Shown: positions 3,891 to 41,775, counted from the first letter of the whole stretch. The stretch: DNA of 63,266 bases, filler included, from Stramenopiles sp. TOSAG23-6 (GCA_900128565.1; 10 parts of 10 records of this genome joined end to end with filler, not necessarily neighbours in it), one strand, 5' to 3'. The notes: generated by a model not told the origin, from the letters alone. A program made the numbers and translations.

Positions 3891-5336
3891 TTATTTTTTT
3901 TTAATATATTTTGAACCATCTTCAAATGATCCAAATAATTTATCTAGTGGAACCATTGGTGTACCATAATTAACTTCAAATTTTGCATGATGTAAATAAT
4001 GAAAATAACTACCTCCTCCTGGTTTGTCATAGCCATCCTATATTTTGGAAAAATATTTCAAAAAAAAATCTAAAAATTTCTTAGGTACGAAATTTCGTAC
4101 GAAAAAAAATTTGAAATTTGAAATTTAAAAAAAAAAAAAAACGTACATGTCCAGGTAATGGCGATATATCTGCATGAAATTTGTTGAAATAAAAGTGCAG
4201 TGGATGCAACGTAAAAAATAATGCAAGTATTGTACATGAATAATAAATAAAATGTTCCACAGGATGCAAATATTGTGAAAAAATATTTTGTTTGTAGTAA
4301 ACCGTTTTGTTTGTTAGGTACGAATTTTTTGTACCAAAAAAAAAAAAAATTATCAAAAAACAAAAATTCTGAAAATGTAATAACCCTAACCCTACATGCT
4401 AAGACCACTCCAAGGCCCAGGATTATGTATTTTGAAAAAATATTTCAAAAAAATCTTAAAAAAAATTGTTAGGTACAAAATTTCGTATGAAAAAAAAATC
4501 AAATTTGAAAAAAAATCTAAAAAATTTGTTAGGTACAAAATTTCGTATGAAAAAAAAATCGAATGTGAAAAAAAATCTACAAAAATTTGTTAGGTACAAA
4601 ATTTCGTATGAAAAAAAATAAAACATACATAACTTTTGTGATGAAGTGAATGAAAATGTCTATAGAGAAATGCTCCAATGTCACCCGTCCAAATAGAATT
4701 TTTTCGATTCCACCAAGGATGCATTACTCTATGAGCAAAATAAAAGTGAAAATCTCTCCAGTATGCAACAGCAGCTAAATGAAAAATACTCCAAATGGGA
4801 AATGACCAAAACCCGGTTTCAATTAACGAAGGTATTGCACCAATTGCCCATAATCGTATAAAGATACATTCATAGCATGTCGACATTAAAAATCCAAGGT
4901 TACAATATATCACTTCTCTCAATAAATGATCACTCTTTTCATATTGTTGAATTGAATTGTACTTTTTTTCTCTAAATCTTTCATCTTGGTGCCAAGGAGA
5001 TAAATATAAGATATAGTGCCAAAACATATATAAAAAATTTAGGACGAAGACATTGCGTATCAGTGGGATTAAGACCCAACTAAAGTCGTTGTCATCTTTT
5101 GCTCTTTCTATAGGAAAAGTATATTGAAAAGATATCAGGGAAATAACCAAATATGGAACAAGTCGAGTGTATCGAACTAATAATTCACCCGCCCAATGAC
5201 CTTTTGCGGGATCCAATCGTTCTTGACTTTTATTGGTTTTATTGGTTTTGTGTATATTCACTGTATTGCCTTTTTTCATGTTTGCCATTTGTAATATATT
5301 TCCAATTGGCCATGGTATAAGATTCAATAACATCAT
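3891..5336 (-). CDS. Sterol desaturase / fatty-acid hydroxylase superfamily protein; 4 exons (5336-4629, 4424-4396, 4267-4147, 4037-3891)
   Basis: His boxes HFYFAHRVMH, HSLHHKSY|NPGPWSGLSM|HPVEH and PGH|DG...HYLHHAKFEVNYG are restored only after removing 3 introns. Confidence 0.9.
4038..4146 (-). other. GT-AG intron of the same sequence family
   Basis: CAT|GTACGT...GTACGAAATTTCGTACCTAAG...AAAATATAG|GAT gives PGHDGY. Confidence 0.9.
4268..4395 (-). other. Non-canonical GT-TT intron
   Basis: AGC AT|GTAGGG...CACAATATTT|G CAT CCT gives SMHPVEH. TACCTAAC lies 45 nt from the end. Confidence 0.75.
4425..4628 (-). other. Non-canonical GT-AT intron with internally triplicated core (about 60-bp units)
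   Basis: TAT|GTATGT...AAAATACAT|AAT joins HHKSY to NPGPWSG. Three TACCTAAC motifs are present. Confidence 0.85.
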
Positions 5337-5678
5337 TCTTTTCTTTTATAAAACAATGTTTTATGATATAAAAAGAGAGAGAGAGAGAGAGAGAGAGAGG
5401 AGGAGGACAGTCTTTGGAATCAAAGGAGCGGAAAAAACCCTAACCCTAATGTCTTTCAAAATCATCACGAAAAAATCTGTAACTGTAAAAAAAATATCCA
5501 AAAAAAAATCTAACATTTTTCAACCGTCATCTCATCCTTCTCATACAAAAGAAAAACATACAATAAAAAACTTCTTCATTGTATGAGACATTCAAAGTCT
5601 CTATTTATACAAATAACAACAAATCATCGAATGTCTTACCATTACAATACGCTATTAAAGTGCATTGTATCATAAAAA

Positions 5679-6247
5679 ATGAACAACGAACCAACAAATT
5701 TCAATGAAATCAGGACAATTGAAAAAAGTAGTGTTTCTTCCCACCAACACATTGCAGCAATTGAAATACAAAAACGATTCCGTGGTTCCCGAGAGCGATT
5801 ATGGTACCTTGATTACATACAAGCTGTCACTGAAATACAAGCTCATATCCGTCGTTTTGTAGTGATGCGACGTATCAGCAATTTTATAAAGGAACAAAAC
5901 AAAAACGATGCGGTAATTGAGATTCAAAGTATTGTTCGAGGACACCAATGTCGTACTGGTTTTAAAAATATATCTCAAGATAATTCTGTAACATTATTAT
6001 TAAAAAATGCGTTGAAGAAAGTGAATAAACGTGGAGATAAAGAAGCAATGAAAACATTTCAAAATTGGACAGACGTTGGTTTATTAGAAGCAATCATTGA
6101 CGTTTGCAATCAGAGTGATGTACGTTGTATTTTTTTTTTTTTTGAATTTTTTTTTTGGTTTTCATACGAAATTTTGTACCTAACGAAAAACCAAAAAAAA
6201 AAAAAAAATATATTTTCTCAAAATACAGACTTGTCTTTTTGAATCTT
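5679..6247 (+). CDS. IQ-motif (calmodulin-binding) protein, 3' partial; GT-AG family intron 6120-6228
   Basis: Three IQ motifs: EIQKRFRG, EIQAHIRR and EIQSIVRG. Intron GAT|GTACGT...AAAATACAG. Confidence 0.75.
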
Positions 6248-6347
6248 NNNNNNNNNNNNNNNNNNNNNNNNNNNNNNNNNNNNNNNNNNNNTTAATTAAT
6301 TAANNNNNNNNNNNNNNNNNNNNNNNNNNNNNNNNNNNNNNNNNNNN
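6248..6347. other. Artificial contig linker N-TTAATTAATTAA-N (also 12594-12693, 18931-19030, 25268-25367, 31605-31704, 37938-38037, 44271-44370, 50603-50702, 56935-57034)
   Basis: Identical 100-nt spacers with stop codons in all six frames. Contig lengths fall from 6247 to 6232, so neighbouring contigs are not genomically adjacent. Confidence 0.97.
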
Positions 6348-6449
6348 TTTTTTTTTTTTTTTTTTTGCCCAATTTTTTTTTTTTTTTTTTTTTTTTTGTA
6401 CGAAAATTTGTACCTAACAATTTTTTTTTAAAATATTGTCTTATACATT

Positions 6450-7494
6450 AGGTGGCGTTCTTGATATATTTTATCCACGTTGGAAGTTAAAAGTAACATT
6501 AGAAAACACGAAATATAGAGATGCCGCGGCTGATCTTTATGATGCCACGTATGGTTCCTATTCAAACAGTGATGAAGATGATAGCCCTAACCCTAATGTA
6601 GAAAAAAATGTAGAAAAAAATGTAGAAAAAAATGTAGAAAAAAATGTAGAAAAAAATCTAGAAAAAGTTTCATTTCCAAAATGTGAAGATTTATGGAGTC
6701 ATCCATATGGGCCATTAATATCTCAAGATGAAGAATGTTCCGTTTGGGCTCATGTTGATCGTATTGGATTTCGTGTTCCTGATAAAATTTCATTGCTTTT
6801 TTCAAAAAAATCAAAAAAAACACAAAAATCAAAAAAATCAAAAAAATCACAAAAATCACAAAAAACAAAAAGTAAATTTTTTCCGCTTCAAAGATCTCTC
6901 ACTCCTCATATTGATTGTTGTCCAAATGACCTTTATGGTGGTGGTGGAAAAAAAATCCCACGATTTAGACCTATACAGAGTTTATGTTTGTTTTCATTAT
7001 GAATTTCTTTTTTTTTTTCATACGAAATTTTGTACCTAAGATTTTTTTTTGAGATTTTTTTTTGAGATTTTTTTTTTAGATTTTTTTCCCATCATTTCAA
7101 TTTCATTTTTTTTTCGTACCAAATTTTGTACCTAACAAATACCGAATTTGATATATTGTAAAAAATGTGGTATCACTAACAGATACAAAAATGCCAGATC
7201 AAGGTGGTTTTGAAGCATTTAAAGGATTTCATCAAATATTTTCTGATTATTTTAAAACTGTTAAAAATAGAGCAAAACAACAAAATTTTTCAAGTTCGGA
7301 ATTAAGTACGGAATTTTGTACCAAAAAAAAAAAAAAAAAAATAAGACCAGCTATTTGTGTAGGAGATTTTAGTCCATTTAGACCACAAGAAGATAAACAC
7401 GTTATTGAAGGAATTTCTCATATACCAATTTCTGCTGGATCTGTTGTTTTTTGGGATCAGCGTATTCCGCATGTACGTTTTTTTCATTTCATTT

Positions 7495-7539
<45 letters not shown>

Positions 7540-8020
7540 TCCTAAAAAAAAAATTTTTTTTTTTTTTTTTTTTTTACAATAGATATACATTTTGTATTGT
7601 ATACCAAAGGATTTTTTGTTTTCAATTTCGAATTTGTTTTTCAAAAAAAAAAATATTTGATCTAACAAAAAAATCAAATGTAAAAAAAAATATTTTTCAA
7701 AAATACATGCAAATTCACGATATAATACTACAAATCATGCTAGACAAGTGGTTTATGGTGGATTTCTACCAAAAGTAAAAATTAATGAAAAATATGTGCA
7801 TGAACAATTGATTAATTTACAATTAAGACAACCTCAAACAGATTTTTGGTTGGAAGAAACCCTAACCCTAAAAGTGGAAGAAACCCTAACCCTAAAAGAA
7901 AAAAAAAATTCTGATTATTTTTTGAAGTCTTCTCAAAATAATGTAAAAACAAATGTTCAAGATTTTGAACCGTCTTTGAACGAACATGCCTTGGATTTAT
8001 TAGATTGTTCATTTGTTTGA
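6450..8020 (+). CDS. 2OG-Fe(II) oxygenase (PhyH/Gig2-like), 5' partial; introns at about 6980-7167 (boundaries unresolved) and 7473-7708
   Basis: LTPHIDCCP (HxD), RPIQS..SLTD..GGFE..KGFH and AGSVVFWDQRIPH|ANSRYN...RQVVYGGFLP. Confidence 0.75.
7473..7708 (+). other. GT-AT intron
   Basis: CCG CAT|GTACGT...GATCTAAC (42 nt)...AAAATACAT|GCA AAT, in frame with ORF 7748-8020. Confidence 0.8.
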
Positions 8021-8103
8021 TATTCAATGTATTAAATAAATTTTTAATTTTTGACATTGGATTTATTCAATTTATATACAATTTAAATTTCAACACCCTA
8101 ACC

Positions 8104-9390
8104 CTAACCCTTGGAGTAATGTTTTTCAAGTAAATTCTTTGATATTAAAAATACAGAATTTTGTATTTGACAATTTGGATGTTTTTTCAGGAACAAAACT
8201 GCGCTTAAACATTGACAGTTAATCATATGCTGCCGTATATGAGAGGAGACTTCTATTTTTGTTTTATTAGGGTTGCGGTTTACTTCTATTTTTGTTTTAT
8301 TATCAATACATTTTGAACTTAATTCTTTTGTACCATTTTGATGTTGGACAGGATCTTTTTTTTTTGTATTATCTATTTTATTTGTATTGATTGTATTATT
8401 ATTATTGTCACTAGCATAATCTTCAATAGCACTCAATATGACAAGAACACGTAAACACATAATTAAAAATGATTCATTAAAAATATTCGGAGAATTCGTG
8501 ACAAATGGTACATTTGAAATTNTTTTTTTTTGTTTTTTTTGTTGTTTTTGTTGTTGTTGTTGGATACCCATTTTTGATGTTTGACTACTATCTACCGGTA
8601 CTACTAAAGAATTATAACCATTACAAAAATGTTTTCCTGCTGTAGCAATAACACTAGTTAAAGTACCAATCAATCCAGTATGTGCTTCAGGAACCACTAA
8701 TATTCTACTGTGGTGAGGCAATCTTTTACATAGTTTTAATAGTAAAACTAATGAAAATGTGGCAAGATTTTCCATTCTTTCTGTATTTTTAGTACCAATG
8801 TTTGTACTTGATGCTGTAGGATCTGTAGAAATCATATTTTGTCTATGTAAAGTTTTAGCAGATTGTTGTACGAAGATGGCAATAGCATAGCTAGGAATTC
8901 CAGATTCAAATATGTGTGTTAATTGTGTTTGAGAACACCCATCTATCAACCATCCAAGCATATAACAAGCATCCGTATGTGCCCACATATTAGAAGACTG
9001 TAACATTTCTAGAGAAGCAGCAATAAGTTGAAACCATCCTGAATAGTGACATATTTTTTCACAAACAGAGGGACACATTGCAAGACAACCTATCACATTT
9101 GCTAACAAGTTCTGAGTCTGCCATTTCACGCGACCATCGGTATCAAGGCAATAATTTAGGCATTGCATACTCATATGGTTTTTCTTCTTACAAGCAGAGA
9201 ACATATCAAGGAGTTGTATCCCCACATTCTCGAAAATGAATGAACGTGTTGAACAAAACTCAGCATGGTCCGGTTCACGTATCTCACATACTTGCGATAA
9301 TGCGTCAGTGAATTGCGCTACACTTGAAGGTGACTTTATTGCCTTGCAAATACGAACAATACCTGGTGGTGGAACATACGTCCACGTCAT
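8104..9390 (-). CDS. Hypothetical helical (ARM-like) protein
   Basis: 428-aa intronless ORF with Leu/Ile-rich amphipathic helices. No family motif recognised. Confidence 0.65.
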   Translation of the reverse strand: MTWTYVPPPGIVRICKAIKSPSSVAQFTDALSQVCEIREPDHAEFCSTRSFIFENVGIQLLDMFSACKKKNHMSMQCLNYCLDTDGRVKWQTQNLLANVIGCLAMCPSVCEKICHYSGWFQLIAASLEMLQSSNMWAHTDACYMLGWLIDGCSQTQLTHIFESGIPSYAIAIFVQQSAKTLHRQNMISTDPTASSTNIGTKNTERMENLATFSLVLLLKLCKRLPHHSRILVVPEAHTGLIGTLTSVIATAGKHFCNGYNSLVVPVDSSQTSKMGIQQQQQKQQKKQKKXISNVPFVTNSPNIFNESFLIMCLRVLVILSAIEDYASDNNNNTINTNKIDNTKKKDPVQHQNGTKELSSKCIDNKTKIEVNRNPNKTKIEVSSHIRQHMINCQCLSAVLFLKKHPNCQIQNSVFLISKNLLEKHYSKG

Positions 9391-10510: not shown

Positions 10511-10626
10511 CTACAAAAATAACTACAAATATAAAGAGTAAGTAACAAAAAGGCCATACAATAAAATCCTTTTTTTTTTTAAATAAAATCCTTTTTTTAG
10601 TTTTTTTTAGCTATTTTTTAGCTTTT

Positions 10627-11219: not shown

Positions 11220-12508
11220 ATGCTATTTTTAAAACGGCAATGTCGTATACTCAAAGGTATTGGTGGTTTTATGTCACCTGTCCGACGACATTTGAACAGT
11301 CACAGAATGCACTGTTTTACACATCATGATTATACTCTTTCTCTCCCATCGCTTCATAGGTTTCCTATGCAAAGGTATCAAGCTATTTATGACGTTCTTT
11401 TGTCTCGTTTAGATGCAGATCCGAGCATTCCTCTTTCAATACATTCATCTCCTCGACTTGCCAGCATTGAGGAGGTACAAGCAGTTCACGATGAAAAGTA
11501 TGTTTCAGATTTTATACATGGTACGTTAGATGCGAAAAGCATTCGAAAAATTGGATTTCCCTGGAGCGAAGACTTTGTCAGACGAACATTTCGCATTACT
11601 GGTGCTACACTCGAGGCCACTGAAAGGATTTTATCCTTTCCAACACGCAAAAGTGGTTGTATTGTGTCAGCCAACTTGGCTGGGTATGTTTTAATTTTTT
11701 TTCAAATTCGTTTTTTTTCATAGTAAATTTTGTACCTAACAAATTTTGAATTTTTTTTTGAAATATTTTTCCAAAATACATGGGAACACATCATGCTTTT
11801 AGTAAACACGGTGAGGGTTTTTGTGTCTTTAATGACATTGCTGTCGCTGCGCATTTTGCTTTACATGAAGGTGTGAAAATTAATGCCAAACATAAAGTAA
11901 AATCACACAACAGTGATATTCAAACAGCTGATAGAGTTCTTGTTATTGACTTAGATGTTCACCAGGGCAATGGTACAGCTGACATTTTGAAGACTATGTT
12001 TGTTTTATTTTTTTTGAATTTTTTTTTGAATTTTTTTTTCGTACGAAATTTTGTACCTAACAAAATTTTTAGATTTTTTTTTAAATATTTTTTCATAATC
12101 CATTCCAGATACATACACATTATCTGTTCATGCTGATAGCAATTATCCATGGAATTCTCGTGTAGCATCAGACTTAGATTTTGCAGTACAAGATGAAATT
12201 ACTGGTGAAGAGTATAATAATGAAGTTCAAAAGGCTCTACAAAAATTAGATAGTCTTGTCAATGAAGACAGAAAAAACATAAAAAACAAAACCCTAACCC
12301 TAAACAAAAGTGAAAACCCTAACCCTAATCCAAAACACGAAATTGAATTAATCATTTATCAAGCTGGTGTTGACCCTCTCAAAGAAGATCGCTTGGGAAA
12401 ATTAAGTCTTTCTCATAAAGACTTACAGAAAAGAAATCAAATCGTGTACGATTGGGTGAAACATAGACGAGAAAAATTACAGATAGATTCTAGACTCCTC
12501 ATTTTAAT
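11220..12508 (+). CDS. Histone deacetylase family protein (AcuC/HDAC11-like), 3' partial; introns 11684-11781, 11998-12103 and from 12509
   Basis: [56 protein letters not shown] and [14 protein letters not shown]. Confidence 0.95.
11684..11781 (+). other. GT-AT intron splitting the catalytic GGTHHA motif
   Basis: GCT GG|GTATGT...TGTACCTAAC...CCAAAATACAT|G GGA ACA CAT CAT. Confidence 0.9.
11998..12103 (+). other. GT-AT intron
   Basis: ACT AT|GTTTGT...TACCTAAC (42 nt)...ATAATCCAT|T CCA GAT ACA TAC ACA TTA TCT GTT CAT. Confidence 0.8.
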
Positions 12509-12693
12509 GTATGTTTTATTTTATTTTTTTACCGAAAAAAAAAAATCGAATTTTTTTTTTCGTACGAAATTTTGTACCTAACAAATTTTCAAANNNNNNN
12601 NNNNNNNNNNNNNNNNNNNNNNNNNNNNNNNNNNNNNTTAATTAATTAANNNNNNNNNNNNNNNNNNNNNNNNNNNNNNNNNNNNNNNNNNNN

Positions 12694-18584: not shown

Positions 18585-19139
18585 AATAATATTATCTAAA
18601 AGATTTCAGCTACTTCTATGAATTCAATATCTGTGCACTTGCTGTAAGGGGGCAGAGGTAGTATAGGAACCCTGAAATAATACTGTAATACGTATTTCCA
18701 AGGGAATTCCCTTGGTATTTCGATTTGAGCGCGCGCAAGAATTATTTTGCCATTTGTTTAAAAGAAAAACGTTTGAACCGTTGAAAACCGAAACGAAAAA
18801 AAAAATCAATAAAAAAAAAATTCAATATTTTATCGGAGTTTTTCGGGCTCTTGATCTCTGGAGATCAGTGCTCGCTCGAGTTCATCACGATTCACAAAGT
18901 CAAAATGAGGTAAGGTAGTAAGTTACTAGGNNNNNNNNNNNNNNNNNNNNNNNNNNNNNNNNNNNNNNNNNNNNTTAATTAATTAANNNNNNNNNNNNNN
19001 NNNNNNNNNNNNNNNNNNNNNNNNNNNNNNTTTTGGAAAAATATTTCAAAAAAAATCTAAAAAAATTGTTAGGTACAAAATTTACAATAAAACAAATTCG
19101 ATTTTTTTTTTACCGGAAAAAAAAAAAAATAAAACATAC

Positions 19140-25267: not shown

Positions 25268-25389
25268 NNNNNNNNNNNNNNNNNNNNNNNNNNNNNNNNN
25301 NNNNNNNNNNNTTAATTAATTAANNNNNNNNNNNNNNNNNNNNNNNNNNNNNNNNNNNNNNNNNNNNGAAATATGTTTCCAAAATACAT

Positions 25390-26405
25390 ACGTATTGGTG
25401 GGACACTTGATGATGCTGCAGGTGAAGCATTTGATAAAGTATCACGAATTTTAGGATTACCTCAACGAATTGAAAGATTAATGAATAAAGATAAAACATT
25501 TTTACAAAACAATACAGAAAAGAAAACACGAAATATAAAAATGCATGGTGGTGCTTTAGTTGAACTTGCATCAAAGAAAGCAAAAAAGTTGAAGAAGAAA
25601 ATGTATGAATCAAATAGTGAATCATACTCATTTCCAATTCCTATGCGTGGATCAAATCGATGGAAATTGGACTTTTCATTCTCTGGGCTTAAAACAGCAG
25701 TTTTGTATGCAATGCGTAATGAAATCTCTCGAGCTCAATCAAAATTAGAAAACGATGAAATTTCCATCATTAAAAATAATAGTACTAATAATGTTAAGGC
25801 TAAAGCTCAATCTGAAATTGAATCATTACTTCAAGTAAATGACAACGATGCATTTGAAATTGCTGAGGCATTTCAAAAATCAGCTGTAAAACATATCATA
25901 GAGAAAACTGAGGGGGCTTTAGACCATGCAGAGAAATTGTTGATAGATGGAATGAATAACCCTAACCCTACCCCTATGTACGTTTTTTTTTCAAATTCGA
26001 AATTATTTTTTCGTACGAAATTTTGTACCTAACAAATTTAAGTGTTTTTTTGATAACCCTAAGAATAATAACATACAAAAAAAAACTGAGAATATAGAAA
26101 AGTGTATATATAATAATAGTAAAAAGTTAAACAAACTTGTTGTGTGTGGTGGTGTGGCGTCAAATTCTTATTTACGAGACCAAATTGTGAAAATGACAAA
26201 ACAAAAAAATATCAATGTAATTTATCCTCCGCCTAAATTATGTACAGATAATGGTGTTATGATTGCATGGGCTGCCTGTGAGCAGTATAATACATTTCGT
26301 CATAGAAAACACCTAAATGGTGAAAATCCGAACGAGTTTGTGTCTCAAAAAGATAACCCTAACTCTGCTGACCTTACTATACGTGCAAGATGGCCTTTGG
26401 GATGA
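25390..26405 (+). CDS. OSGEPL1: t6A synthase TsaD/Qri7 (OSGEPL1), 5' partial; GT-AT intron 25978-26074
   Basis: [31 protein letters not shown] and [12 protein letters not shown]. The upstream intron ends AAAATACAT at 25389. Confidence 0.92.
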
Positions 26406-30644: not shown

Positions 30645-31539
30645 ATGTCAGAGTTCATTATCGACAAACATTACTATGCTCTTTGTGCTTTAGTAACGGC
30701 TCTGATTCAGTATTCATGTTTCTTCATCGCGTATAACTGTAGCTTTGATACAATAACTGATTTCGCGGGTAGTATAAACTTTGTAGTGATTGCTCTTCTG
30801 ACGCTTTTCCTCGGTGACTATTATTATGACAGACAAGTTGTCCTAACAGGTATGTTATTGGCTGCACGTTTAGAACTTGCTATATTTTTGTTATATAGAG
30901 TTGTAAAAAGAAAGAAAGATGCACGTTTTGACAGAATACGTGAAAATCTCATCCCCTTCTTAGTCTTTTGGACTTTTCAAATCATTTGGATATATGTAGT
31001 AGCACTACCAGTAACAAGAATAAACTCAGCTCAACCTAATCCTGCTATTTGTGGATGGGATTATTTAGGTTGGACAATGTGGGGTATCGGCTTTTTCGTA
31101 CAGACTCATAGTGACTTTCAGAAGCTTTCTTTTCGGTCGAATCCTGCCAACAAAAACTTTGCCTGTGACACTGGATTTTGGAAATATTCACGGCATCCAA
31201 ACTACTTTGGAGAAATCCTCATGTGGACAGGAATATTCTTATCGACTCTACCAGTTTGGCGTATTGATGGTGAGAAGGATGGTTGGATTACCATGTATGT
31301 TTTCAAAATTGAATGTAAAATATATTTTTTTCTGTACCAAAATTTGTACCTAACAAAAAATTTAAAAAAAACAAAAAAATTTTCACAATACAGGCTATCA
31401 CCAATTTTTACCATTATACTTTTACTCTTTGTTTCAGGTGTCCCAACGGCTGAAGGGAAAAACTTGAAAAGATTTTATGAAAATGGGAATTCTATTCGCG
31501 AAAGGTATATGAGTTATAGATCACGCACACCTACGATAT
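30645..31539 (+). CDS. DUF1295 / steroid 5-alpha-reductase-like membrane protein, 3' partial; GT-AG family intron 31295-31393, next donor at 31540
   Basis: TDFAGS.NF, KDARFD, DFQK and WKYSRHPNYFGE. Junction ACC AT|GTATGT...CAATACAG|G CTA. Confidence 0.9.
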
Positions 31540-31704
31540 GTATGTTTTATTTTTTTTTTTTAACAAAAAATCGAATTTTTTTTTCGTACGAAATTTTGTA
31601 CCTANNNNNNNNNNNNNNNNNNNNNNNNNNNNNNNNNNNNNNNNNNNNTTAATTAATTAANNNNNNNNNNNNNNNNNNNNNNNNNNNNNNNNNNNNNNNN
31701 NNNN

Positions 31705-33926
31705 AACTATTTTCAGCATTCAAGTGTTGGCGTAGTATTATTGATGCTGTGATTGAAAAAGAAAATCATGAAGTCGAAGTTCAACAGATTACAGATTTGT
31801 ACGAAAAGTCAATGAAGCAGAATAGTGGTGTTCTTAGCATGAGTAAATTTGTTGCTAGAATGCTATTAGGTGCATTGTATCGCGCGTTTCATAAATGGAA
31901 GAGTTCTTTTATAATTTATTCGTTAGAACACAAAAGCGAAGTTTATGTACAAGCTTTATTAGATGCAAAACATGAAAAGTTCTCGACTAAAACGAAAGCA
32001 TATGCGACTAAGGTTGTCTACAGATTTCTCTTGCGAAAACTTTGGGTTTACTTTGAAGTTTGGCGAATTTCATCAGATAACGAATCAAGAAGAATAAAAG
32101 CGTATAGAGAAGCTACAATCCTAGTTCGAAGGTCGTTACTTCGAATGCGATACCAAACTTTGCAAAAGGGGTGGAATAAATGGCAATGTACGTTTATTAT
32201 CAATCACACAACAGAGCAAAAAGATCGATTGTGGGATTTGCTGGAGAATATGCAACATTCACTAGAGGACCATCAAAAGATTGTTGGTTTACGAGTTATT
32301 TCACGATGTATGGAGAATAAACTGTCAAGTGTATTTATTCACTGGTGGAAAACTACATTAGAATTGATTTGTGAAGATAACATTCTAAAGGATAAAACCA
32401 AAGCATCAGCAATATCAATTAAAAGATGCCTTTGTCGCTTTTGGCTTGCAAAGCTTGGAGATGCATTCAACGTGTGGTATATTACAGCATTTCATATTCG
32501 GATAAAACTGGAACACGATGAAAAACTTGATTCAATGAAACTTGGAAGCCAAAGAAAACAATTTAGAGTCGCACGCTCTTTAGTTTTGCGAATAATTCGC
32601 CGCAACACGGAGGCTGCATTTCAGAGGTGGCGACATGCTTTAACATTGAATGATCTGCTACATAAGATGTCTAAAATGGATGAAACATTTCAAGAGAGGC
32701 ACAGAAAACACAATATTGATACGAAGCAATCCAGCATGAAGAGAATTATTCTTCGGCTACATTATTCAAAATTAGCATTAGCTATGTGTCACTGGAATGC
32801 TAAAGCAAAAGACATTTCATACAAAAACAATATGCTTAATAGAGCTACTAAAGTATTACATTTTTCACTGAAACGATTTTGTCGGAAAATTCTCATGACT
32901 GCCTTTCACAAGTGGATAACAGGATATCATTATGAAACACTTAGCGATGCTGTAGTAAATTATAACATGATTCAAATTAATCATGGTGTTGTCATTACGG
33001 AGTGTGTGCTACGACGATGGATCAGAAGGAGTTTATTAAAAGCACTAGATCATTGGCACAGGCAAACCGAAATTATTTGTGTACATAATGATCGAAAGCA
33101 AACCGCAACTAGGGTTATGTACTGTATATTTGGGCGTTGGATTCAATATGTGTTAAGAAACGCATGGGCAGATTGGTTACGACACATTCATGTGTGGAAA
33201 ATGCGAAAAGTACATATGGTGGAAATGTCAAAGTTAATATCATCTCACTTAGAAGATACCAAACGACAAGAAGAAAGATCTCACTTAGAAGATACCAAAC
33301 GACAAGAGGAAATGTCAAAGTTAATATCATCTCACTTAGAAGATACCAAACGACAAGAAGAAAGTAAAAAATCAGAATTCACAATACAATCCAGAAAGCA
33401 CACACATATGGTTTTACTACATGCTGATAGGATTTTAAATCGTTGGAGAAATAGATTACGTACCAATTCCTGGAACAAATGGAAAAATTTTCTTAAGTGG
33501 CAGAATGTACATATGTTATTATCAGAACTCTCTTTGGAGCGCTACTTTCATGGTTTGACAAATCTGAATACCAGTAATGTTGTACATAGATGGTATAGAC
33601 ATTGCTTAGTAAAGGGCTTGATGTCATTCAGAACAGTAAGTGGCTTTCATAAAAAAAGAGAAACATCTAAGGAGTGTACGAACAATAGCACTGAAAGGCA
33701 GAAAAAACAAAAAGATACATATAATATAGCTACGAACAATGTACGCAGATCCAACCGTACTCTTCTAGCACACCGTTTTATCATTCGCTGCTTGTCACTA
33801 CCAGAAAGTCTCGTTTGGGAACGATGGCTCGCTGTCACGGGAATTCGCCAAAATTTGAACAAGGACCAATATCAAGTACAACATAAATCTAAAATGCCTG
33901 AAGTACCAGATACAATATCACTTTAA
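31705..33926 (+). CDS. Trp-repeat helical protein (Sfi1-like centrin-binding repeats), 5' partial
   Basis: Recurrent L..AF..W motifs (LYRAFHKW, LQKGWNKW, LGDAFNVW, LMTAFHKW). Internal in-frame duplication at 33221-33360. Confidence 0.6.
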
Positions 33927-34485
33927 AATAATTATACTATATTGTGTGAATGAGTATTACTAAATTGAATGATACAAAGTTACTCAGTTGAAATTTACTA
34001 GTAAAAAAAAAATGAAAAGTGTTCATTTTTATATATAAATATAAATTCAAAAAAAATACTTTACTTTTTTTGTTCAAATGTAATACTGGTACGATAAATT
34101 ACTATATAATAGAACTAACAGAACCATCACTGCGACCTCAACAAAACGAGTTATTAAAACGAGTTATTAATGAAACGACAAGTGTTGCGAACCCACTTTA
34201 ACGTACCGTGACACTGTTTGATTAATTGGAGTTGCTTTACATTTATGATCATGATACTTTTCCCAGAAACATTTTCCGATGGTCAGTTCACAATAATATC
34301 GAAGAAAACGAAGAAAACGCCACGTGTGCAATCTATAATAAATCCATCAAGTTAAAATTTTAAATTTTTGACCCCTTCATTCAAGGCTTCATCAAGAAAT
34401 CCTGGGACCAGAACGAGCCGAAAGAGAAATGCAATGAATAATATCATATCACATTGAGCTACATTGAAAGTAATAATTTAGTAGA

Positions 34486-36528
34486 ATGTCAACTCGAGAC
34501 CCCCACATGATGCGCGAAGCATTGCAATTTCTATCGAATATTCCAATGGGCGGCGAGCATTTGCCTTCTGGTCGCCGTAACCCACGCTCACCTCCTGGTT
34601 CTAGTTTGTCAAAAAGAATGGCCTTTTCTAGTTCAACAGAAGTACCAAATGAAGGCTATGGTCGAAATAATAATCGTAATGGCATATTAATGGTTCAAGG
34701 TGATAAGACATATGTTCATGTTGGACTTCACGACATCCTACAACGTGGGCCAGATATCGAAGGGACAGCAAGGCGACAATGGGAAGATGCTCTTGTTCGC
34801 CAAGGCTTCATGAATGGTCGAGTATTTCTTTCAGCAAGTCGTGGTTACCCTACATGTGTATTTTCGATGAAACCATATGCTACTAATTCAGCAAAAGTAC
34901 TTGAAAAGAAGAAAAAGAGGAAAAAAATACCTTCTCGAAAAACTCAAGATTTCGATTCTGGTATTGATAGTGTTGATGAAGAAATTGTTGTTGAAGGAAT
35001 ATCATATAAACATTTGCTACACTCTACATGGGGAAAATATTGTAGCTCTGAGCGTGATCAAAAAGAAGANCATCCAGCACCCCCACCACAATATATCCCT
35101 GGTTATCTAGATGATCCTGAAATTAGACATACGAAGCATCGGACTGTAATGTTCATGCCACCTGCGTGTACGTTTTTTTCCNACACTTTTTTTTTTTAAT
35201 ATTTTTTTTAATACGAAATTTTGTACCTAACAAATTTTAGTTTTTTTTTTTAAATATTTTTTCAAAATACATGTTATATACACACTGTGATACCTTATTC
35301 CAGACCTAAAAAATTACAAGAGGAACTTAATGCCCAGTTTCATCAAAAACATCCCCATTTAGACCCCCAATTAACTCTCACCAGTGTACGTCGAGCAAAG
35401 GAGATTTGTTGTAAGATGTATGTTTTTATCGTTTATTTTTTGTACGAAATATTTTTAATATTTTTTTTTTTTTACTATTTTTTTTTTAAATATTTTTTTT
35501 ACATGTTTTCATCGTTTTTTTATACGAAATATTTTTAATGATTTTTTTTTTTAAAGTATTTTTTTTACATGTTTTCATCATTTCCTGTACAATTTCAATG
35601 TCGAATTTACTTTTTTTCATTGAAAATTTTAATTTTGGACATTTTTTGTTAAATTTCAAAGTTTTGAAATATTTTTTCACAATATTTGTTACATTTTTGT
35701 CTTTCTAACAATAAAAACACAGACGATGATGGAGATGGGGTAGATAGAGACGACAAACCTGTTTTAGAGGTATCAACTGTAGCTCTTGCATTCGTATGTT
35801 GTCTATTTCAATTTAATTTTTTTTTTCCGTCAAAAATATTTCATACCTATCAAGTTTTTTTGAAAATATTTTTTCACAATATATGTATGTTTTTTTTCAT
35901 TTTTTTTTCAATTTCGAATTTAATTTTTTTTTTTTGATTTTTTCGTACGAAATTTCGTACCTAACAAATTATACAAAAAAAAAATATTTTTTCACAATAT
36001 ATGTATACTGGGAAAAATTAATTCTTCGCTCAGTCTGTACATTTTCAAGTATGGAAAATTCGTTTTTCGTGTCAAAAGATAATCATGTGTGTTTTCAAGA
36101 TTGAGTTTCATTTTTTTCATACAAAAGTTTGTACCTTACAAAACAGTGTACAAAAAAAAAATATATTTTTCCAAAATACATGTTTTTTTTATTAATTTTT
36201 TTTTTTTGAAAATTTCAGACCTAACAAAACCATTTCAAAAAAAAAATATTTTCCCAAAATACATTGTTTAATTCTTGCAGTTTGTCTTTTACTAGCACAC
36301 AAGTTCAATCAACCCCAACCGGTGGCAAGTTCAGAAATTCAGAAATTATTAGTATTAGTTGTAGAGAAACTAGGTAGGATAAGCCCATCTGCGTTTAATA
36401 AGAAAAATATTTTTCAAAATGAGACTTTAGTCTTTGCAGCTCTTGATTTTAGTCTTCATATACAAAAAAATGAATTTTTACCTCACATTTCACTCATTAG
36501 CGAATGTATGAATATGATTGATAAATAG
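34486..36528 (+). CDS. CABLES-like cyclin-domain protein; introns 35168-35272, 35418-35687, 35794-36002 and 36087-36264
   Basis: ALQFLSNI, YLDDPE..TKHRTV, YIHTVIPY..PKKL.EELN.QF..KHP..LTLT, STVALAF|VYWEKL, CLLLAHKF and ETLVFAALDFSL. Confidence 0.85.
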
Positions 36529-36648
36529 ATTTTAAAGATAAATAAATGAAAATTGAGAATTTATACAACAAATTTTAAAACAATTCGTAATTTCTAGAGA
36601 GAATCGCCTTTTATTTTTGTTGAAAATTTTTGTGTCTATTGAGTGGGT

Positions 36649-37066
36649 TTATTCTACTAACTCGTCTCCTTGTTGTGGAGCTATAGTTGAAAGAGATTTT
36701 GACAATTTNTTTGCATTTGAATGTTTCTTTTTCCAGAACGAACGTATAGCAATTACAGCGCCACCAACAACAATGCATAGCACTCCGACCACAGGCAGCA
36801 CAATCTTCCGCGTTTCTCTATCATCATCATCTGAGTTATCTGGTCGTAATCTATTCAACGTGGTTCGAATGCAAGGCGATAACCTCCGACCTCCATCTCC
36901 TCTGGAGGCATGCGTTATCAATATTGGCGACTATATCACGCAACTTTTGAAGTTCTTGGCGCAAATCGGCCAATTCTGTTGCACCAATGCCATCCATTCC
37001 CTTCTTCGAATAGTGCAATACGCAATGAAGCATCTGAGCATATTTTGGTATTTTAACATTATACAA
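36649..37066 (-). CDS. Possible small tail-anchored membrane protein split over two overlapping frames
   Basis: A coiled-coil-like ORF (37066-36851) overlaps a TM-containing ORF (36921-36649). The structure is unresolved. Confidence 0.3.
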
Positions 37067-37323
37067 CTGCGTAGTAGGTCGTGGACGTTTATATCATTCC
37101 TTTATAAAACTTTCTTTTCTTCCTTTTGCACTTCTAAAGACCTGTTTTGGCGCAGCGTTCGTTCCTCTGGCAAAATTTACCGGAATTGACCGCTCCATTT
37201 TTCCTTTCGAAGCAGCCGTTACCCGGTACCCATTTTTCAATATTGGAATTGGAATATTGGAATAATACAATTCACTATTACTATTACTATTAGTATNTAC
37301 AAAGTATCATGAGGAAAGGCAAG

Positions 37324-37405
37324 ATAGTTGTGGCCGAGTGGTTAAGGCGAGACATTAGAAATGTCTTGGGCTATGCCCGCGCAGGTTCGAATCCTGTCAA
37401 CTGCG
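37324..37405 (+). tRNA. tRNA-Ser(AGA)
   Basis: A box TGGCCGAGTGG, anticodon arm AGACA-TTAGAAA-TGTCT, long variable arm, GGTTCGAATCC, discriminator G and a downstream oligo-T tract. Length 82 nt. Confidence 0.93.
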
Positions 37406-37720
37406 AATTGTTTTTTTTTCTAAATAATTTTTAAAAATATGAATTTTTTTGAGACCTCGAGCGTGTACCCGGTAACGAAGAATCGATCGATAAAATACCA
37501 TTAAATTTTCTAGACAAAAATACAGACAAATAATACGTATAGACTTACATTCGTCAGCAACCAGTGTTTTCCACGTTGGACAGATTCAAAGAAAAAAGAC
37601 AATTGTAAAAAGTTAACTTTTTACAATTTTAAATTATATTTTTGAGAAAAATAAAATATTAGTAATATTTTATTTAAAACGTGTTTGTGTGTTGTTGTAG
37701 TAAACATTGAAGCGTTTATT

Positions 37721-37883
37721 TTATTTAAAACGTGTTTGTGTGTTGTTGTAGTAAACATTGAAGCGTTCATTGTTTGGTAATACTTCATTTTGTACATCAT
37801 CCAAGGCAATACTGCACTTGTGCTCGTATATGGGAATGCGCCCAAAAAACTCATCTTTGAGCTCATCACCCGATGCACCAGTT
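37721..37883 (-). CDS. Terminal exon of an unidentified gene
   Basis: Follows a family intron end (TACCTAAC...AAAATACAT at 37884) at the contig edge. Frame uncertain. Confidence 0.45.
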
Positions 37884-38126
37884 ATGTATTTTGGAAAAAT
37901 ATTTGAAAAAAAAAAACTAAAATTTGTTAGGTACAAANNNNNNNNNNNNNNNNNNNNNNNNNNNNNNNNNNNNNNNNNNNNTTAATTAATTAANNNNNNN
38001 NNNNNNNNNNNNNNNNNNNNNNNNNNNNNNNNNNNNNTTTTGGAAAAATATTTCAAAAAAAATTCGTTAGGTACAAAATTTCGTATGAAAAATAAATTAG
38101 AAATTGAAAAAAAAAATAAAACATAC

Positions 38127-38773
38127 ATGTGTTGTACTTACTTCTGAGTCCTTGGATAGTGAAACTCCGCCTCGAGTAAACTTACGTCCCGTTGATGTAT
38201 TGTGAAAAATATTTTTTTTTCGTAAAAAAAACTCGTTAGGTACGAAGTTTGGTACAAAAAAAATAAATTCGAAATTGATAATGAAAACGTACACCTTCCG
38301 AGCATGATTGGTTTCCCATCAAGGCGAGGTTTTAATTTCCAAGTCCTGTCCGTATATGGACCCTCAATGCATTTCAAATGTACATCAAATATACCCCTTG
38401 TAATGTTTGCTCTAATACTTGCGTTATTTTTAGAATCACGCGAGTCAGCTAATACACCCAAAGCAATATCTCGTTGGCGCCCAAATTCGTTCCGGAAAAA
38501 CTCAATTTGGGCCTCTGTTCGAGCGGTAAGACTTCCAATCAAAGATTCTGTATACGCAGCAAGGTATTCCTCAACTGTTGCATTCTTTGGACATTCACGA
38601 GTTGCCCTTGCCATAGCATCACGCATAACCACATTAGACGAAGCTCCTGATGAAGAAGTAGAAACACAACACCCAGCCGTTAAGGATGGCACTGTTGTGC
38701 TATTAATTATATTGCGCGTATTATTATTTTCAGATCCCCTTCTCCTTCTACTTTTCACTACTGTATCTTGCAT
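38127..38773 (-). CDS. FHA-domain protein, 3' partial; GT-AT intron 38195-38292, next donor at 38126
   Basis: LKCIEGPY...IMLGR|STGRKF..GVSLSKDSEVSTTH, which carries the FHA GR and SxxH motifs. Confidence 0.85.
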
Positions 38774-39199
38774 ATTGTTGAATTAATCTATTTTGTAGCG
38801 ATCTCGTATAATCTAAATTGCACTGAAGAAAGAAGAGAAAGATTCACCAAGAAAAAGTGAACAACTTGTCATTCGAAATTTCGAAATTATCGCAAAAAAA
38901 TTTAATCTCAAAAATTTTCGATTTATAGGTACCGGGTACACACGGCACACTTTCATTTTTGCTATTTTTTCATGACATGATGGCCGTAAAGCTGAATCGA
39001 TTGTTGATGTTCGTGACATGACATGATTGGTCTGACACTCGGCAAGACGCTGTCCACTTTAGTTTTGGTTAACATTGATTTCTATTTATTTGTTTGCGAT
39101 ATTTTTGGAGAATAGCTTTTCATAGTTGTTATTTTGTTGATAGCCCTATACATAAGAGTTACTGTGTCATTCGTATAGACTTCTTTGGCACTTGATACA

Positions 39200-41775
39200 A
39201 TGGAAGCTGCAGATCAATCCTTCAAGACGAAACCCAACAAAGAAAAGAGCGCAATAAAAGCGGAGTGTTCTTTGACTTCGGGACCATCGGAATTCACTAT
39301 GCCACCAACATCGAATAGGCATCTTCCGACTGCAGCGGTAAAAATTTTGAAAGGTACGTAACTTCATTAAATATTCGTTTTCGCCGGGTCAGCTTTGTGT
39401 TTTCGTGTGCTTTTGTTTCTTAATTTCGTTTTTCATTCTGCTTGATATAGATTAGTCGTTCTCATTTTCATTATCTTTCATCATGTATATATTTAAAATC
39501 ACAGATTGGATGATGTCCGAAGAGCATTTTATGCACCCGTATCCTTCAGATGCTGAAAAGCAGGAGTTGGTTGCGAAAACAGGAATCCGCCTGAAACAGC
39601 TCAACAATTGGTTCACCAACGCTCGGAAACGTATCTGGCGCCCAGTTTTTGATTCACGTTTAGCTGCGCAGTCAAAATCACCACATTCTAATAATCCGTG
39701 TATAATATCTCCAATGAACAAAATGCCTGCTGGTGCCTCGAATAATTCTCCTTTTGGTTGGTCTATGCCAAGACGTCGTAGTGAAGTGGATGCTTTGTAT
39801 GGGCTTACAGTTTTAGGCAGCGGCGAGACAGGAAATTCATCAGCATATTCTACAGCATCTGGTTCTACGACACCTTTAAAACAAAACGAAGCGCCCAATG
39901 TAATTCCCGGTATATATATGCAGAACATGCGCCAATGCTTTAAAAATGGTCCCGTAGGAAATATTTTTTTTTTAGTATTTTTTTTTTTCATACGAAATTT
40001 TGTACCTAACAATTTTTTTAAGTTTTTTTTTGAAATATTTTTCCAAAATACATTCCGTGAACTCTGCTACTATTGCTGAGTATGATGCGAAAGGTACAAA
40101 AACAATCGATGGTAAAACGAAACCATTGACCTGTGATACGAATTCCGTACCTAATTATCAAAATACACCCAAGAAAGAAAATATCGGGAGTATTTCGAGC
40201 TGTACTAATTTGGTCAAAAATGACAATTCTCAGTTACCTGTGACGCCAATAAATAATACAACTGTTGCAATGAATAAAGTCGCCATTCCGTTCACACCAA
40301 CTGTACCCTACAGTAGTCCACTCACTAAGGAGAGGATTGAAAGTTTTTTTCAAAGTAACATTCAGCATTCTCCTAATGTAAATAATATGGAACATAATGT
40401 GTCTAAAGATGGCGATGCAGCTGCAAAGACTTTTCCGACACCGGCTAATGTTTCTACACAAACTAAAGTCTTGTCTCATCTTAACCAAAATCAGGTTACA
40501 TCTAAATTTGATAATACATTGAATTCATCTAGAGATGTTGAATCATCTAGTAATCATTTGAGTAAGACAGTACTTACGTGTAAGACGAGTGAAGAATCTC
40601 CAATGGGACATACTGGAAATATTCCTCGAAGTGTTACTCCACAAACTGCTAACTCTCTTAATGGAAATGTTACCTTTTGTGTTACTCCTCCGATTACGAT
40701 GACATCATCTTCAAATACAAATATCTCTGAGGTTTCTTCAACAACATCAGTATCTAAGAAAACTTCACCTCAGCTTCCTCCAGGCAAGAAACGATGCCTC
40801 TCGCTATCTGATGGAAGTAACATATATGTATCTTATGCGGGTGAAAAAAGATCTAAAAAATGTGATAGTAGTAATCCATCAAGTGATAACTGGGATCCTT
40901 TTGCAACTTTGATGGCTTCGGCTGTTGTCCAACCTATAACCTCAACAGATTCCCAAGAGTTAAAAAACAATGATGAAAATGTGAAAGAAAATACATCATC
41001 TAAGAATTCAACTTTAGTATCTACAAAGAAGAGATTATCGATAGATGTTGAAGCCGCAAAAAGTCGAATTAAACGAAATCGCGTCTCCAGTAGTGAAATT
41101 GGCGCTGATATGCTTGTACGTATGTCGTCATTATCTGAATCGCCCAATCTTGCTGCTTCAAAAACTGCCACCCATTCAAATGCAAGTGTTCCAATTTTGA
41201 TAAATCCTTCATTAAATGATAATCTGGGTACAAAAGATGTCACACAACTTGCTGCTGGGTATTCAAAGCTAAATGAAAGCCAATTATCAGAATTATCAAA
41301 ATCAATATTAGAGGGGCAATTACCAACAAATACGCCCTTTGTAAATATGCCAGTGTTTGATAAAAATGGAAATCCAGTTTTCCATTTTTCAGAATTCCCA
41401 CCAATGCCTTCTCAATTTAAGACACCAAAACCGAAGAAAGTGTATGTTTTATATGAATTTCTATTTTTTTTTCATACGAAATTTCGTACCTAACGAATTT
41501 TTTTTGAAATATTTTTCAAAATACAACTTTCACCACTACCTTTTCGTGCACATTTACAAGCTTTTCTAAATTTAGCTAAACAAAAATCTATTTCTGATGG
41601 GCTCTCATCGGCGTTATTAATTATGCGTGATGAGGATAATAAGAGCAAAGATAAAATTCGGGGAATAGCAAAAANTCGCAANTCAAAAAAAANAAAAANA
41701 ANGCGCATAANAANAAAAATGATTCAACACAAATTTTATCAAAATCAGAAGAGCGAAAAAAATTTCATTTATTAG
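39200..41775 (+). CDS. TALE-class homeodomain transcription factor; introns 39354-39504 (canonical), 39954-40053 (GT-AT) and about 41440-41526
   Basis: RHLPTAAVKILK|DWMMSEEHFMHPYPSDAEKQEL...QLNNWFTNARKRIW, followed by a long S/T/N-rich tail. Confidence 0.9.

Follow-up and report, generated by a model that had tools for sequence, protein, structure and literature searches.

U2 introns of the budding-yeast type have the donor GTATGT and the branch box TACTAAC, the branch often lies 20-50 nt from the 3' splice site, and yeast splicing takes the first suitable YAG. For the non-conventional introns of euglenids and Amoebophrya, a helix between the intron ends has been proposed. The introns analyzed here resemble those of yeast in the donor hexamer, the strict CTAAC branch box and the long branch-to-end distance, and differ from them in that AG is mostly absent from the 3' end and nearer AGs are skipped.

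Introners have been described in Micromonas, Aureococcus, Symbiodinium and many aquatic protists, mostly marine plankton (PMC9860276). As presented in that survey they are, like the elements reported here, many near-identical short elements located in genes, with carried or recruited splice signals and unchanged mRNA length; the present elements depart from that description in that 17 of 20 have non-AG ends and no duplication fits all copies. According to its account of the data, the survey used annotated introns only, and would therefore miss such elements. The non-canonical introner elements of Amoebophrya (PMC7789003) are likewise repeated non-GT/AG introns of a marine protist that affect gene prediction. 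In the description given there, they have inverted repeats of 8-20 nt joining their ends, direct repeats of 3-5 nt and no defined terminal dinucleotides, whereas here the 5' splice site and the branch box have the canonical form and the deviation is confined to the final one or two bases. A further case of non-canonical introns, that of Fritillaria borealis, has a mechanism that the report on it links to the duplication of U2AF subunits and to altered snRNA methylation (10.1101/2025.08.15.670264). Introners are thus known as a kind; what appears to be new, judging from the sequence, is a variant not ended by AG, with mostly AT ends, and in the literature searched we found no printed description of these repeat-born non-AG introns.

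The repeat family and its copies

The window, i.e. the whole stretch of 63,266 nucleotides from Stramenopiles sp. TOSAG23-6 that was analyzed, is a run of ~6.2-kb contigs of AT-rich DNA from a marine eukaryote; the name that one source gives to its own gene model indicates the MAST-3 group of marine stramenopiles. All 24 introns that were delimited in it are copies of one short repeat of ~85-130 nt, in tandem in some places, and by its sequence features this intron family is probably an introner, that is, an intron-generating repeat family. Each element consists of a 5' splice site GTAYGTTTT, a T-run with a small palindrome, the extended branch box GTACCTAAC, a variable T-rich or A-rich spacer and the terminal box ATATTTTTYCAMAATAYAT. 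When 14 introns were aligned over their whole length, the 5' end, the branch box and the terminal box were all conserved. The extended branch box GTACCTAAC was matched 29 times (23 unique matches and 6 in duplicated contigs) versus 0.14 expected, and none of 100 shuffles reached 29; the unique sequence behind all counts is only ~44 kb, with the 23 unique boxes in it. For TTTTCMAAATAY, with up to 2 mismatches, there were 180 matches versus 122 expected, and bare CTAAC was not enriched in the window (91 versus 85 expected). Four contigs break inside repeat copies (12582, 19068, 37926, 38066). A search with Rfam across the window gave one tRNA and nothing else.

Many contigs from seawater RNA libraries (605 were compared) have a match to the repeat, with unrelated flanks. 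Pattern scans of metagenome and genome contigs gave chance matches only. The libraries with repeat copies also contain TOSAG23-6 exons, with 0-2 differences.

All 24 donors begin with GT, in a GTAYGT-like hexamer. AT precedes 16 of them, and the other eight follow GG, GT (three times), TC, CC, CG and TT. Where the exon ends in AT (these 16 of 24 donors), the registers GT..AT, TG..CA and AT..AC yield identical mRNA and are indistinguishable. In the desaturase-like gene, the AT upstream of the donors is part of conserved Tyr, Met and His codons. The AT before the donor can be read as a 2-nt duplication in 16 of 24 copies. A target-site duplication of the kind expected for a MITE-like introner (TIR/TSD) was considered and rejected, the eight non-AT donor flanks not matching their own 3' ends.

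It is conceivable, and in our opinion highly improbable, that the elements are not spliceosomal, and are instead transposon insertions retained in the RNA of dead genes or removed otherwise, e.g. through an end-to-end helix. The many unspliced copies in the RNA libraries would fit this, the 5' GTAT can pair with the ATAC ahead of the terminal AT, and exact removal of any insertion restores the frame, so that frame tests alone do not prove splicing. Yet all 23 unique branch boxes lie in sense orientation, on the strand of the longest adjoining ORF, the copies carry canonical donor and branch signals, and they are inserted in essential genes (UTP20, TsaD) and present in genes at a density of roughly one per 2 kb. 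The end helix is moreover ~4 bp, with pairing limited to GTAT/ATAC (4 nt, 6 with the exon AT) and an 8-20-nt inverted repeat joining the intron ends not present; the donor variants GTAC, GTTT and GTAG are unmatched by changes in the 3' box, and in most copies folding energies do not differ from those of shuffles.

Reading frame and homology at the 3' cut

Homologues are informative for two genes, which contain the following copies:

4038..4146, minus strand: intron 3 of a sterol-desaturase/fatty-acid-hydroxylase-like gene, GTACGT...ATATAG, AG type; branch box CCTAAG with its end at 4080, 42 nt before the intron end
4268..4395, minus strand: intron 2 of the same gene, GTAGGG...ATATTT, terminal TT; branch-box end at 4313, 45 nt before the intron end
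4425..4628, minus strand: intron 1 of the same gene, GTATGT...ATACAT, terminal AT; three tandem internal units of period 60 (4447-4618), end of the last branch box at 4468, 43 nt before the intron end
11684..11781, plus strand: intron 1 of an HDAC11/AcuC-like gene, GTATGT...ATACAT, terminal AT; branch box ends at 11740, 41 nt to the intron end
11998..12103, plus strand: intron 2 of the HDAC11/AcuC-like gene, GTTTGT...ATCCAT; branch-box end at 12061, 42 nt before the intron end

The spliced models of both genes are gap-free against homologues across five junctions, four of them non-AG. With the junction marked by a slash, removal of 4038..4146 gives PLPGH/DGYDKPGGG, gap-free against P0130, P0135, P0129 and P0251; GLSM/HPVEH (4268..4395), with a Met conserved among the homologues listed, and HSLHHKSY/NPGPWSGLSM (4425..4628) are equally gap-free. 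No AG occurs from the branch box of 4268..4395 to 40 nt beyond the intron end. In the HDAC-like gene, removal of 11684..11781 gives NLAG/GTHHAF, and a G stands directly before G.HHA in 101 of the 101 homologues carrying G.HHA, which excludes the AT-AC register for this intron. Removal of 11998..12103 leaves 13 residues between GNGT and [ST]xH, as in 111/111 homologues. This intron passes over TAG 12070-72, a CAT 7 nt before its end and CAG 12106-08, and its AG alternatives would cause a frame shift or the loss of conserved residues. The public model of the HDAC-like gene misses these introns, one being read through, and the catalytic GTHHA motif is deleted from it.

The remaining copies are as follows:

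6120..6228, plus strand: intron after an IQ-motif ORF, GTACGT...ATACAG, AG type; branch box ends at 6184, 44 nt to the end; downstream exon truncated by the contig end
10162..10330, plus strand: intron with two branch boxes (10221 CTAAT, 10301 CTAAC), GTACGT...ATACAT; 29 nt to the end; in frame, 155 + 59 open codons, an AAG 3 nt beyond the end being likewise in frame
12509..12593, plus strand: partial copy with GTATGT and a branch box to 12582, cut off by the contig end
19574..19700, minus strand: intron of the UTP20 gene, GTATGT...ATACAT, also in three duplicated contigs; branch-box end at 19617, 43 nt before the intron end; removal puts an ORF of 1855 codons in frame with one of 163, either nearby AG giving at most 10 codons
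25978..26074, plus strand: intron of a TsaD/Qri7-like gene, GTACGT...TAACAT; branch box ends at 26033, 41 nt to the end; removal joins 202 + 110 codons in frame, supported by domain order, 5/5 nearby AGs giving at most 18 codons
31295..31393, plus strand: intron of a DUF1295 gene, GTATGT...ATACAG, AG type; branch box ends at 31354, 39 nt to the end; in frame, 238 + 71 codons
35168..35272, plus strand: intron 1 of a cyclin-like gene, GTACGT...ATACAT; branch-box end at 35231, 41 nt before the intron end; TAG 35238-40 passed over; a single ORF runs across this junction and the next three
35418..35687, plus strand: intron 2 of the cyclin-like gene, GTATGT...ATATTT, terminal TT; three degenerate tandem units without an intact CTAAC ahead of the end; in frame in the spliced model; terminal box identical to 4268-4286
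35794..36002, plus strand: intron 3 of the cyclin-like gene, two head-to-tail units, terminal AT; inner boundary ATATAT/GTATGT at 35884/35885; branch-box end at 35965, 37 nt before the intron end
36087..36264, plus strand: intron 4 of the cyclin-like gene, two head-to-tail units, terminal AT; inner end at 36181; two branch boxes, with ends at 36139 (CTTAC) and 36225, the latter 39 nt before the intron end; CAG 36278-80 out of frame, Cyclin_N match directly downstream
38195..38292, minus strand: intron of an unnamed gene, GTACGT...ATACAT; branch-box end at 38235, 40 nt before the intron end; in frame, with a 68-nt exon open to the next AT/GTATGT donor; next copy (donor 38126) truncated by the contig end
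39954..40053, plus strand: intron after a TALE homeobox ORF, GTAGGA...ATACAT; branch-box end at 40010, 43 nt before the intron end; removal fuses 166 codons with an ORF that stays open for the whole 300 codons tested, AAG 40020-22 giving 18 codons
41442..41526, plus strand: copy with a short spacer (32 nt) and the end ATACAA, the sole out-of-frame case at the box end; frame kept only with a cut 1 nt earlier or 2 nt later, or with the donor GT 41440
41835..41929, plus strand: intron of a Tmem161-like gene, GTGTGT...ATATAT, outside the span of the earlier note; branch box ends at 41893, 36 nt to the end; in frame
42069..42177, plus strand: intron of a Tmem161-like gene, GTANGT...ACCCAT; branch box CCTAAG with its end at 42138, 39 nt before the intron end; a cut at the box end yields a single ORF that includes the part matching Tmemb_161AB and continues to the stop, while a cut at the ACAG passed over 17 nt past the branch box meets a stop at once

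If the cut is made where the terminal box ends, the frame is preserved in 17 of the 18 testable introns, for which our own arithmetic gives a chance probability of ~1e-7, taking odds of 1/3 per case. The earlier note had claimed that closer AGs are skipped, and AGs and one CAT nearer the branch are indeed passed over. The two TAGs it had expected to cause frameshifts behave in that way: with G 12072 (TAG 12070-12072) as acceptor 21 codons remain open versus 159 at the box end, and with G 35240 (TAG 35238-35240) 16 versus 88. The candidate sites skipped are 12072, 12108, 35240, 19605, 26042 and 40022. Several introns have an AG 27-39 nt downstream that would be in frame as well, and homology excludes such an AG only in the HDAC-like and desaturase-like genes.

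The terminal dinucleotides (n=20) are AT in 15 cases, AG in 3, TT in 1 and AA in 1, so that 17 of 20 are non-AG. As the last two bases are usually AT and sometimes TT or AG, the terminal dinucleotide would not be what defines the acceptor. Assignment to the canonical U2-type GT-AG class was rejected: the donor and the CTRAY branch box fit it, a terminal first-suitable AG (3/20) does not. We infer the exact cuts, as well as the splicing of the elements, from reading frames and homology only.

Splicing by a minor-spliceosome-like machinery has also to be weighed. GT-AT is documented as a U12-type boundary, with seven cases reported and the boundary described as spliceable by the U12 machinery (PMC1557818), and U12-type introns as described in the sources consulted (PMC1557818, 10.1101/2020.10.12.336362) share with the present ones the tolerance of non-AG ends including GT-AT, a rigid branch box, which is extremely conserved here, and a 3' site chosen by position. 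They differ in donor consensus and in branch-to-end distance: the donor [G/A]TATC[C/T]TT is found in 0 of 24 copies, which have GTAYGT donors instead, and the branch-to-end distance is 29-45 nt, versus about 9-15 nt for the U12 type and the 9-12 nt given for Physarum (10.1101/2020.10.12.336362). A U12-type origin of these boundaries is thus very unlikely.

Spacing between the branch box and the intron end

Distances were counted in 20 copies, with the final base of CTAAC (or CTAAG/CTTAC) as starting point and the inferred end of the intron as end point, and were 43, 45, 42, 44, 29, 41, 42, 43, 41, 39, 41, 37, 42, 39, 40, 43, 32, 36, 39 and 42 nt (mean 40.0, SD 4.0, range 29-45), with 15 of the 20 at 39-45 nt. 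This recount agrees with the list in the earlier note, including the short values of 29, 32, 36 and 37, except that no 33 was found. The 5' segment has an SD of 29.6 (n=19), or 11.1 for the 17 copies in which it is below 100 nt; a 3' spacing as variable as the 5' one, which would have spoken against a ruler, was thus not observed.

A ruler acting through distance plus motif had been proposed on the basis of this spacing. The part of the proposal by which the acceptor is not the first AG holds, while constant spacing is equally expected of repeat copies. Common ancestry, named at the time as another explanation, is borne out by the alignment of the copies over their whole length; since all the introns are copies of one repeat, the near-constant spacing is inherited from the master copy. 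Within the copies, the distance from the ATATTT core of the terminal box to the cut is 19 nt in 13 of 17, a constancy that is partly built in, because the box itself had served to place the cut, and that is independently checked only modulo 3 and at the five junctions. The branch-to-core spacer, of 14-26 nt, is the seat of all length variation. The last 3-6 bases vary (ACAT, ATAT, CCAT, ATTT, ACAG, ATAG) and the inferred cut stays put.

In its strict form, a ruler would mean that the spliceosome or a bound factor counts ~40 nt from the branch adenosine, the terminal box only fine-tuning the site. The clustering of distances is in line with it, although common descent alone predicts the same. 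So is the skipping of nearer sites with the same trinucleotide, such as the CAT in 11998-12103 or the TAT in the box core, and of the ACAG at 17 nt from the branch box, and T-rich and A-rich spacers are alike in length though unlike in sequence. Against this, the cut stays at the terminal-box end while the branch distance spans 36-45 nt in cases backed by frame or homology (29-45 with two less certain cases), and 35418-35687 is in frame at the box end with no intact CTAAC before it. Spacer and core-to-cut lengths show no compensation (r=+0.24, n=17), which argues against a fixed count from the branch. We regard such counting as unlikely; a positional read-out of some sort, from the box core or from the branch, is plausible.

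Our preferred explanation is that the introner copies are spliced from GT to the box end by a U2-like spliceosome, with the cut set by the terminal box, and from the sequence evidence we consider this probable. The major-type machinery would read the yeast-like GTATGT and CTAAC signals, and the terminal box would by its position determine the second cut, 19 nt past the ATATTT core, with no role for the reading of AG or for a fixed count from the branch. Splicing would then remove exactly the stretch from GT through the last base of the terminal box and restore the reading frame. A wider proposal, which we make tentatively and with more doubt than confidence, is that nearly all introns of the lineage derive from one introner, with an AG-independent, position-set 3' cut (19 nt past the ATATTT core and ~40 nt past the branch), the last two bases free and GT-AT as the dominant class, on an otherwise yeast-like major spliceosome.

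Implications for intron evolution and gene prediction

With these elements, the lineages whose introns were mostly made by a single element come to include a heterotrophic marine stramenopile. This element lacks a clear transposon signature: there is no duplication common to all copies, and it shows a strong preference for insertion after AT. Gene finders limited to GT-AG fail on such genomes, as the HDAC-like model illustrates, and gene counts, apparent pseudogenes and functional inferences for the group may therefore be biased. If RNA data confirm the cuts, this would be a natural system that chooses the 3' splice site of a U2-like intron without AG, and the way in which the site of the second step is found could be tested through dozens of natural variants, with AT, TT and AG ends and spacers of 14-26 nt.

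Composition of the window and the repeat family

The contigs of the window, each 6,232-6,246 bases long and sorted longest first, are separated by nine linkers, each consisting of 44 N, TTAATTAATTAA and another 44 N. The 63,266 bases are several loci, and genes on the two sides of a linker are unlinked in the genome.

Linkers between contigs
6248-6347
12594-12693
18931-19030
25268-25367
31605-31704
37938-38037
44271-44370
50603-50702
56935-57034

Three contigs (44371-50602, 50703-56934 and 57035-63266) are each 100% identical to the contig at 19031-25267, which holds the UTP20 gene, over its initial 6,232 bases. The three appear to be duplicate records and not genes arrayed in tandem, and the unique sequence therefore amounts to ~44 kb. 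The GC content of the window is ~33%, and the genes identified by Pfam searches are of ordinary eukaryotic kinds and have long exons (dynamin, GRASP, HDAC-like, MetAP, UTP20, TsaD, DEAD helicase, DTD, DUF1295, cyclin-like, TALE homeobox and Ccdc124). A public protein described as 'GSMAST32... assembled CDS' that matches the window suggests an origin in MAST-3, a group of marine stramenopiles. Exons of the window were found in seawater metatranscriptomes at 0-2 differences, and only such metatranscriptomes contained 5-14% of the sampled words. The sole Rfam or ARAGORN match in the window was a tRNA-Ser of 82 bases with anticodon AGA (37324-37405), and an array of 72/216-base period at 20-630 corresponds to leucine-rich repeats on the minus strand.

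All 24 delimited donors start with GT, most of them as GTATGT or GTACGT, and 14 aligned introns are homologous across their entire length. The copies share one order of parts: GTAYGTTTT at the 5' end, T-runs, a small palindrome (CRTACGAAATTTYGTAC) merging into the CTAAC of the branch box, a variable spacer, T-rich or A-rich, and the terminal box AAATATTTTTYCAMAATAYAT. The motif GTACCTAAC has 29 matches in the window versus 0.14 expected; CTAAC by itself showed no enrichment there. Four introns are tandems of two or three units each, four contig ends lie inside repeat copies, and the repeat is matched by many seawater RNA contigs with differing flanks. Together with the whole-length homology, these facts define an abundant dispersed family. 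The longest adjacent ORF shares its strand with the unique branch box in 23/23 cases, and no introns of any other kind were seen in the window. In the term of the literature, the family is an introner.

Introns considered in the text
4038-4146, minus strand, desaturase-like gene
4268-4395, minus strand, desaturase-like gene
4425-4628, minus strand, desaturase-like gene, tandem
11684-11781, plus strand, HDAC-like gene
11998-12103, plus strand, HDAC-like gene
19574-19700, minus strand, UTP20
25978-26074, plus strand, TsaD
35418-35687, tandem
35794-36002, tandem
36087-36264, tandem
42069-42177, plus strand, Tmem161-like gene

Head-to-tail junctions of elements without an intervening exon occur at 35884/35885 (ATATAT|GTATGT) and 36181/36182 (ATACAT|GTTTTT); such pairs may be removed as a single intron or in two steps. 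The intron starting at 6986 (region 7040-7197) has two branch boxes but no terminal box of the usual form. Its end seems to be the AG at 7182 or 7197, right after a further CTAAC (7176-7180), and the intron may represent an older copy now shifted to the canonical layout with a short distance from branch to AG. The dynamin-like ORF (1629-2460) encodes the N-terminal GTPase domain only and continues into a degenerate repeat copy, with a donor at 2320 and a CTAAT ending at 2385; since the next gene is on the opposite strand, this contig may be chimeric, joined at the repeat copy.

The dinucleotide AT directly precedes the donor in 16/24 cases (background 0.10). A 2-nt target-site duplication was rejected as its origin, as it fails in 8/24, and in the desaturase-like gene the upstream AT is part of conserved codons. 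We read it as an insertion preference after AT, or as splice-site context, without duplication.

The short telomere-like repeat CCCTAACCCTA, allowing <=1 mismatch, occurs 14 times versus 0.23 expected. Several of these repeats are in-frame low-complexity inserts in coding sequence, such as NPNPNP of the HDAC-like gene, which falls in a gap of the homologues, and NNPNPTP immediately upstream of the TsaD intron. One of the repeats makes up GTAGGGTTAGGG, the donor region in intron 4268-4395.

Telomere-like repeats
2887-2915
4384-4394
5438-5448
6585-6595
7860-7894
8096-8112
12292-12327
25960-25976

Predicted intron ends

The positions of splicing given here are deduced from reading frames and homology in one window. 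A cut at the very end of the terminal box would leave the flanking ORFs in frame in 17/18 testable cases, the exception being 41442-41526. Removal of 11684-11781 from the HDAC-like gene yields NLAG|GTHHAF, with the Gly that precedes GTHHA in 101/101 fetched homologues, and removal of 11998-12103 gives a spacing of 13 residues between GNGT and SxH, the same as in 111/111 fetched homologues. The three junctions of the desaturase-like gene (KSY|NPGPWSGLSM|HPVEH...PLPGH|DGYD) are gap-free with respect to four homologues. The five introns fixed by homology in this way end in AT, AT, AT, TT and AG, and the terminal dinucleotides of 20 copies are AT (15), AG (3), TT (1) and AA (1).

The earlier note had argued against use of the first AG as acceptor, and this is well supported: nearer AGs break the frame and most ends are not AG. 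The frameshifts it attributed to the TAGs at 12070-12072 and 35238-35240 were recovered, with 21 open codons versus 159 at the box end for the former and 16 versus 88 for the latter. AGs were tested over the interval that begins at the branch box and extends 40 nt beyond the intron end: all of them break the frame in the introns of UTP20 and TsaD and in the first one of the cyclin-like gene, and in 4268-4395 the interval is devoid of AG. A good ACAG lies 17 nt after the branch box of 42069-42177 and leads to an immediate stop; ending the intron at CCAT, at 39 nt, yields one ORF that runs to the stop. Several in-frame AGs downstream of the box end were excluded only in genes with homologues.

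Only exons with AT at their end allow an AT...AC register, in which the intron would begin 2 nt further upstream. This register was ruled out at 11684 by the Gly found in 101/101 homologues, and at 4395 and 4146 by a conserved Met and His, respectively.

Branch-to-end spacing

A recount in 20 copies agreed with the branch-to-end distances reported before (mean 40.0 nt, SD 4.0, range 29-45), and the 3' part is indeed less variable than the 5' part, the SD of which is 11.1 in the 17 copies with a segment <100 nt and 29.6 in all 19. T-runs and tandem duplications appear to supply the additional 5' length. These data do not demonstrate the ruler that had been put forward on these grounds, a fixed count from the branch. 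All variation of the 3' part is carried by the stretch between the branch box and ATATTT, the core of the terminal box (14-26 nt, SD 3.0), while the distance from core to cut is 19 nt in 13/17 copies and the two lengths do not compensate each other (r=+0.24). Where frame or homology supports the site, the cut remains at the box end over branch distances of 36-45 nt, and the box-end cut is also in frame for an intron without an intact CTAAC before its end. With uncompensated lengths and a cut fixed to the box end, a count from the branch is unsupported. The alternative raised in the same note, common ancestry, accounts for the spacing: the copies descend from one 100-nt element, so that clustering of distances needs no mechanism.

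The last bases of the terminal box differ between copies (ACAT, ATAT, CCAT, ATTT, ACAG, ATAG), and the same trinucleotides a few bases upstream of the cut are ignored; thus the site is explained neither by choice of the first AG nor by a simple trinucleotide at the end. Our best guess is that the cut would be set by a positional read-out of the box, or by a loose window from the branch. A hairpin between branch and end that would shorten the distance was discarded as unsupported (energies of -5.3 to 0 kcal/mol, most z-scores within noise versus shuffles). GTAT at the 5' end is able to pair with the ATAC preceding the terminal AT; as a guide, this pairing was rejected, since comparison by eye of donor variants with terminal boxes revealed no compensatory changes.

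Known introns, database searches and gene models

According to a survey restricted to annotated introns, from which unannotated assemblies were dropped, introners occur in many aquatic protists and have GY-AG ends (PMC9860276), whereas those of the window end mostly in AT. The repeated non-canonical introns described in Amoebophrya lack defined ends and carry long inverted repeats (PMC7789003). GT-AT is reported as an accepted, if rare, boundary in U12-type introns (PMC1557818; 10.1101/2020.10.12.336362), but the donor and branch distance found here do not match that class. Work on Fritillaria shows that adaptation of a major spliceosome to a genome whose introns are non-GT/AG is possible (10.1101/2025.08.15.670264). 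The available text of a study of MAST single-cell genomes does not mention unusual introns, and we found no description in the literature of non-canonical introns or introners in these lineages, a listing in the supplement of PMC9860276 being possible.

Seawater RNA contigs matching 31705-37937 covered the exons of ORF 31707-33923 and the repeat, leaving the cyclin-like exon junctions uncovered; the joints among them were cross-matches between repeat copies. With HDAC exon 2 as query, no near-identical spliced form was recovered from the protein collection, where the matches were the public model of the window and distant homologues, and the TsaD ORF had no match in the first search of that collection. 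Scans for further copies returned three loci in metagenomes, all without the module, and three single matches in prokaryotic MAGs among genome contigs, taken as chance.

Pieces of the HDAC-like ORFs match the public protein P0004, the 'GSMAST32... assembled CDS', at 100% identity. In this model (11307-12572), intron 1 is read through, the catalytic GTHHA is absent and the end is translated intron sequence. Gene finders limited to GT-AG introns appear to fail on this genome. The more interesting finding, reached by way of an acceptor that is not the first AG, would be an introner family with mostly AT ends.
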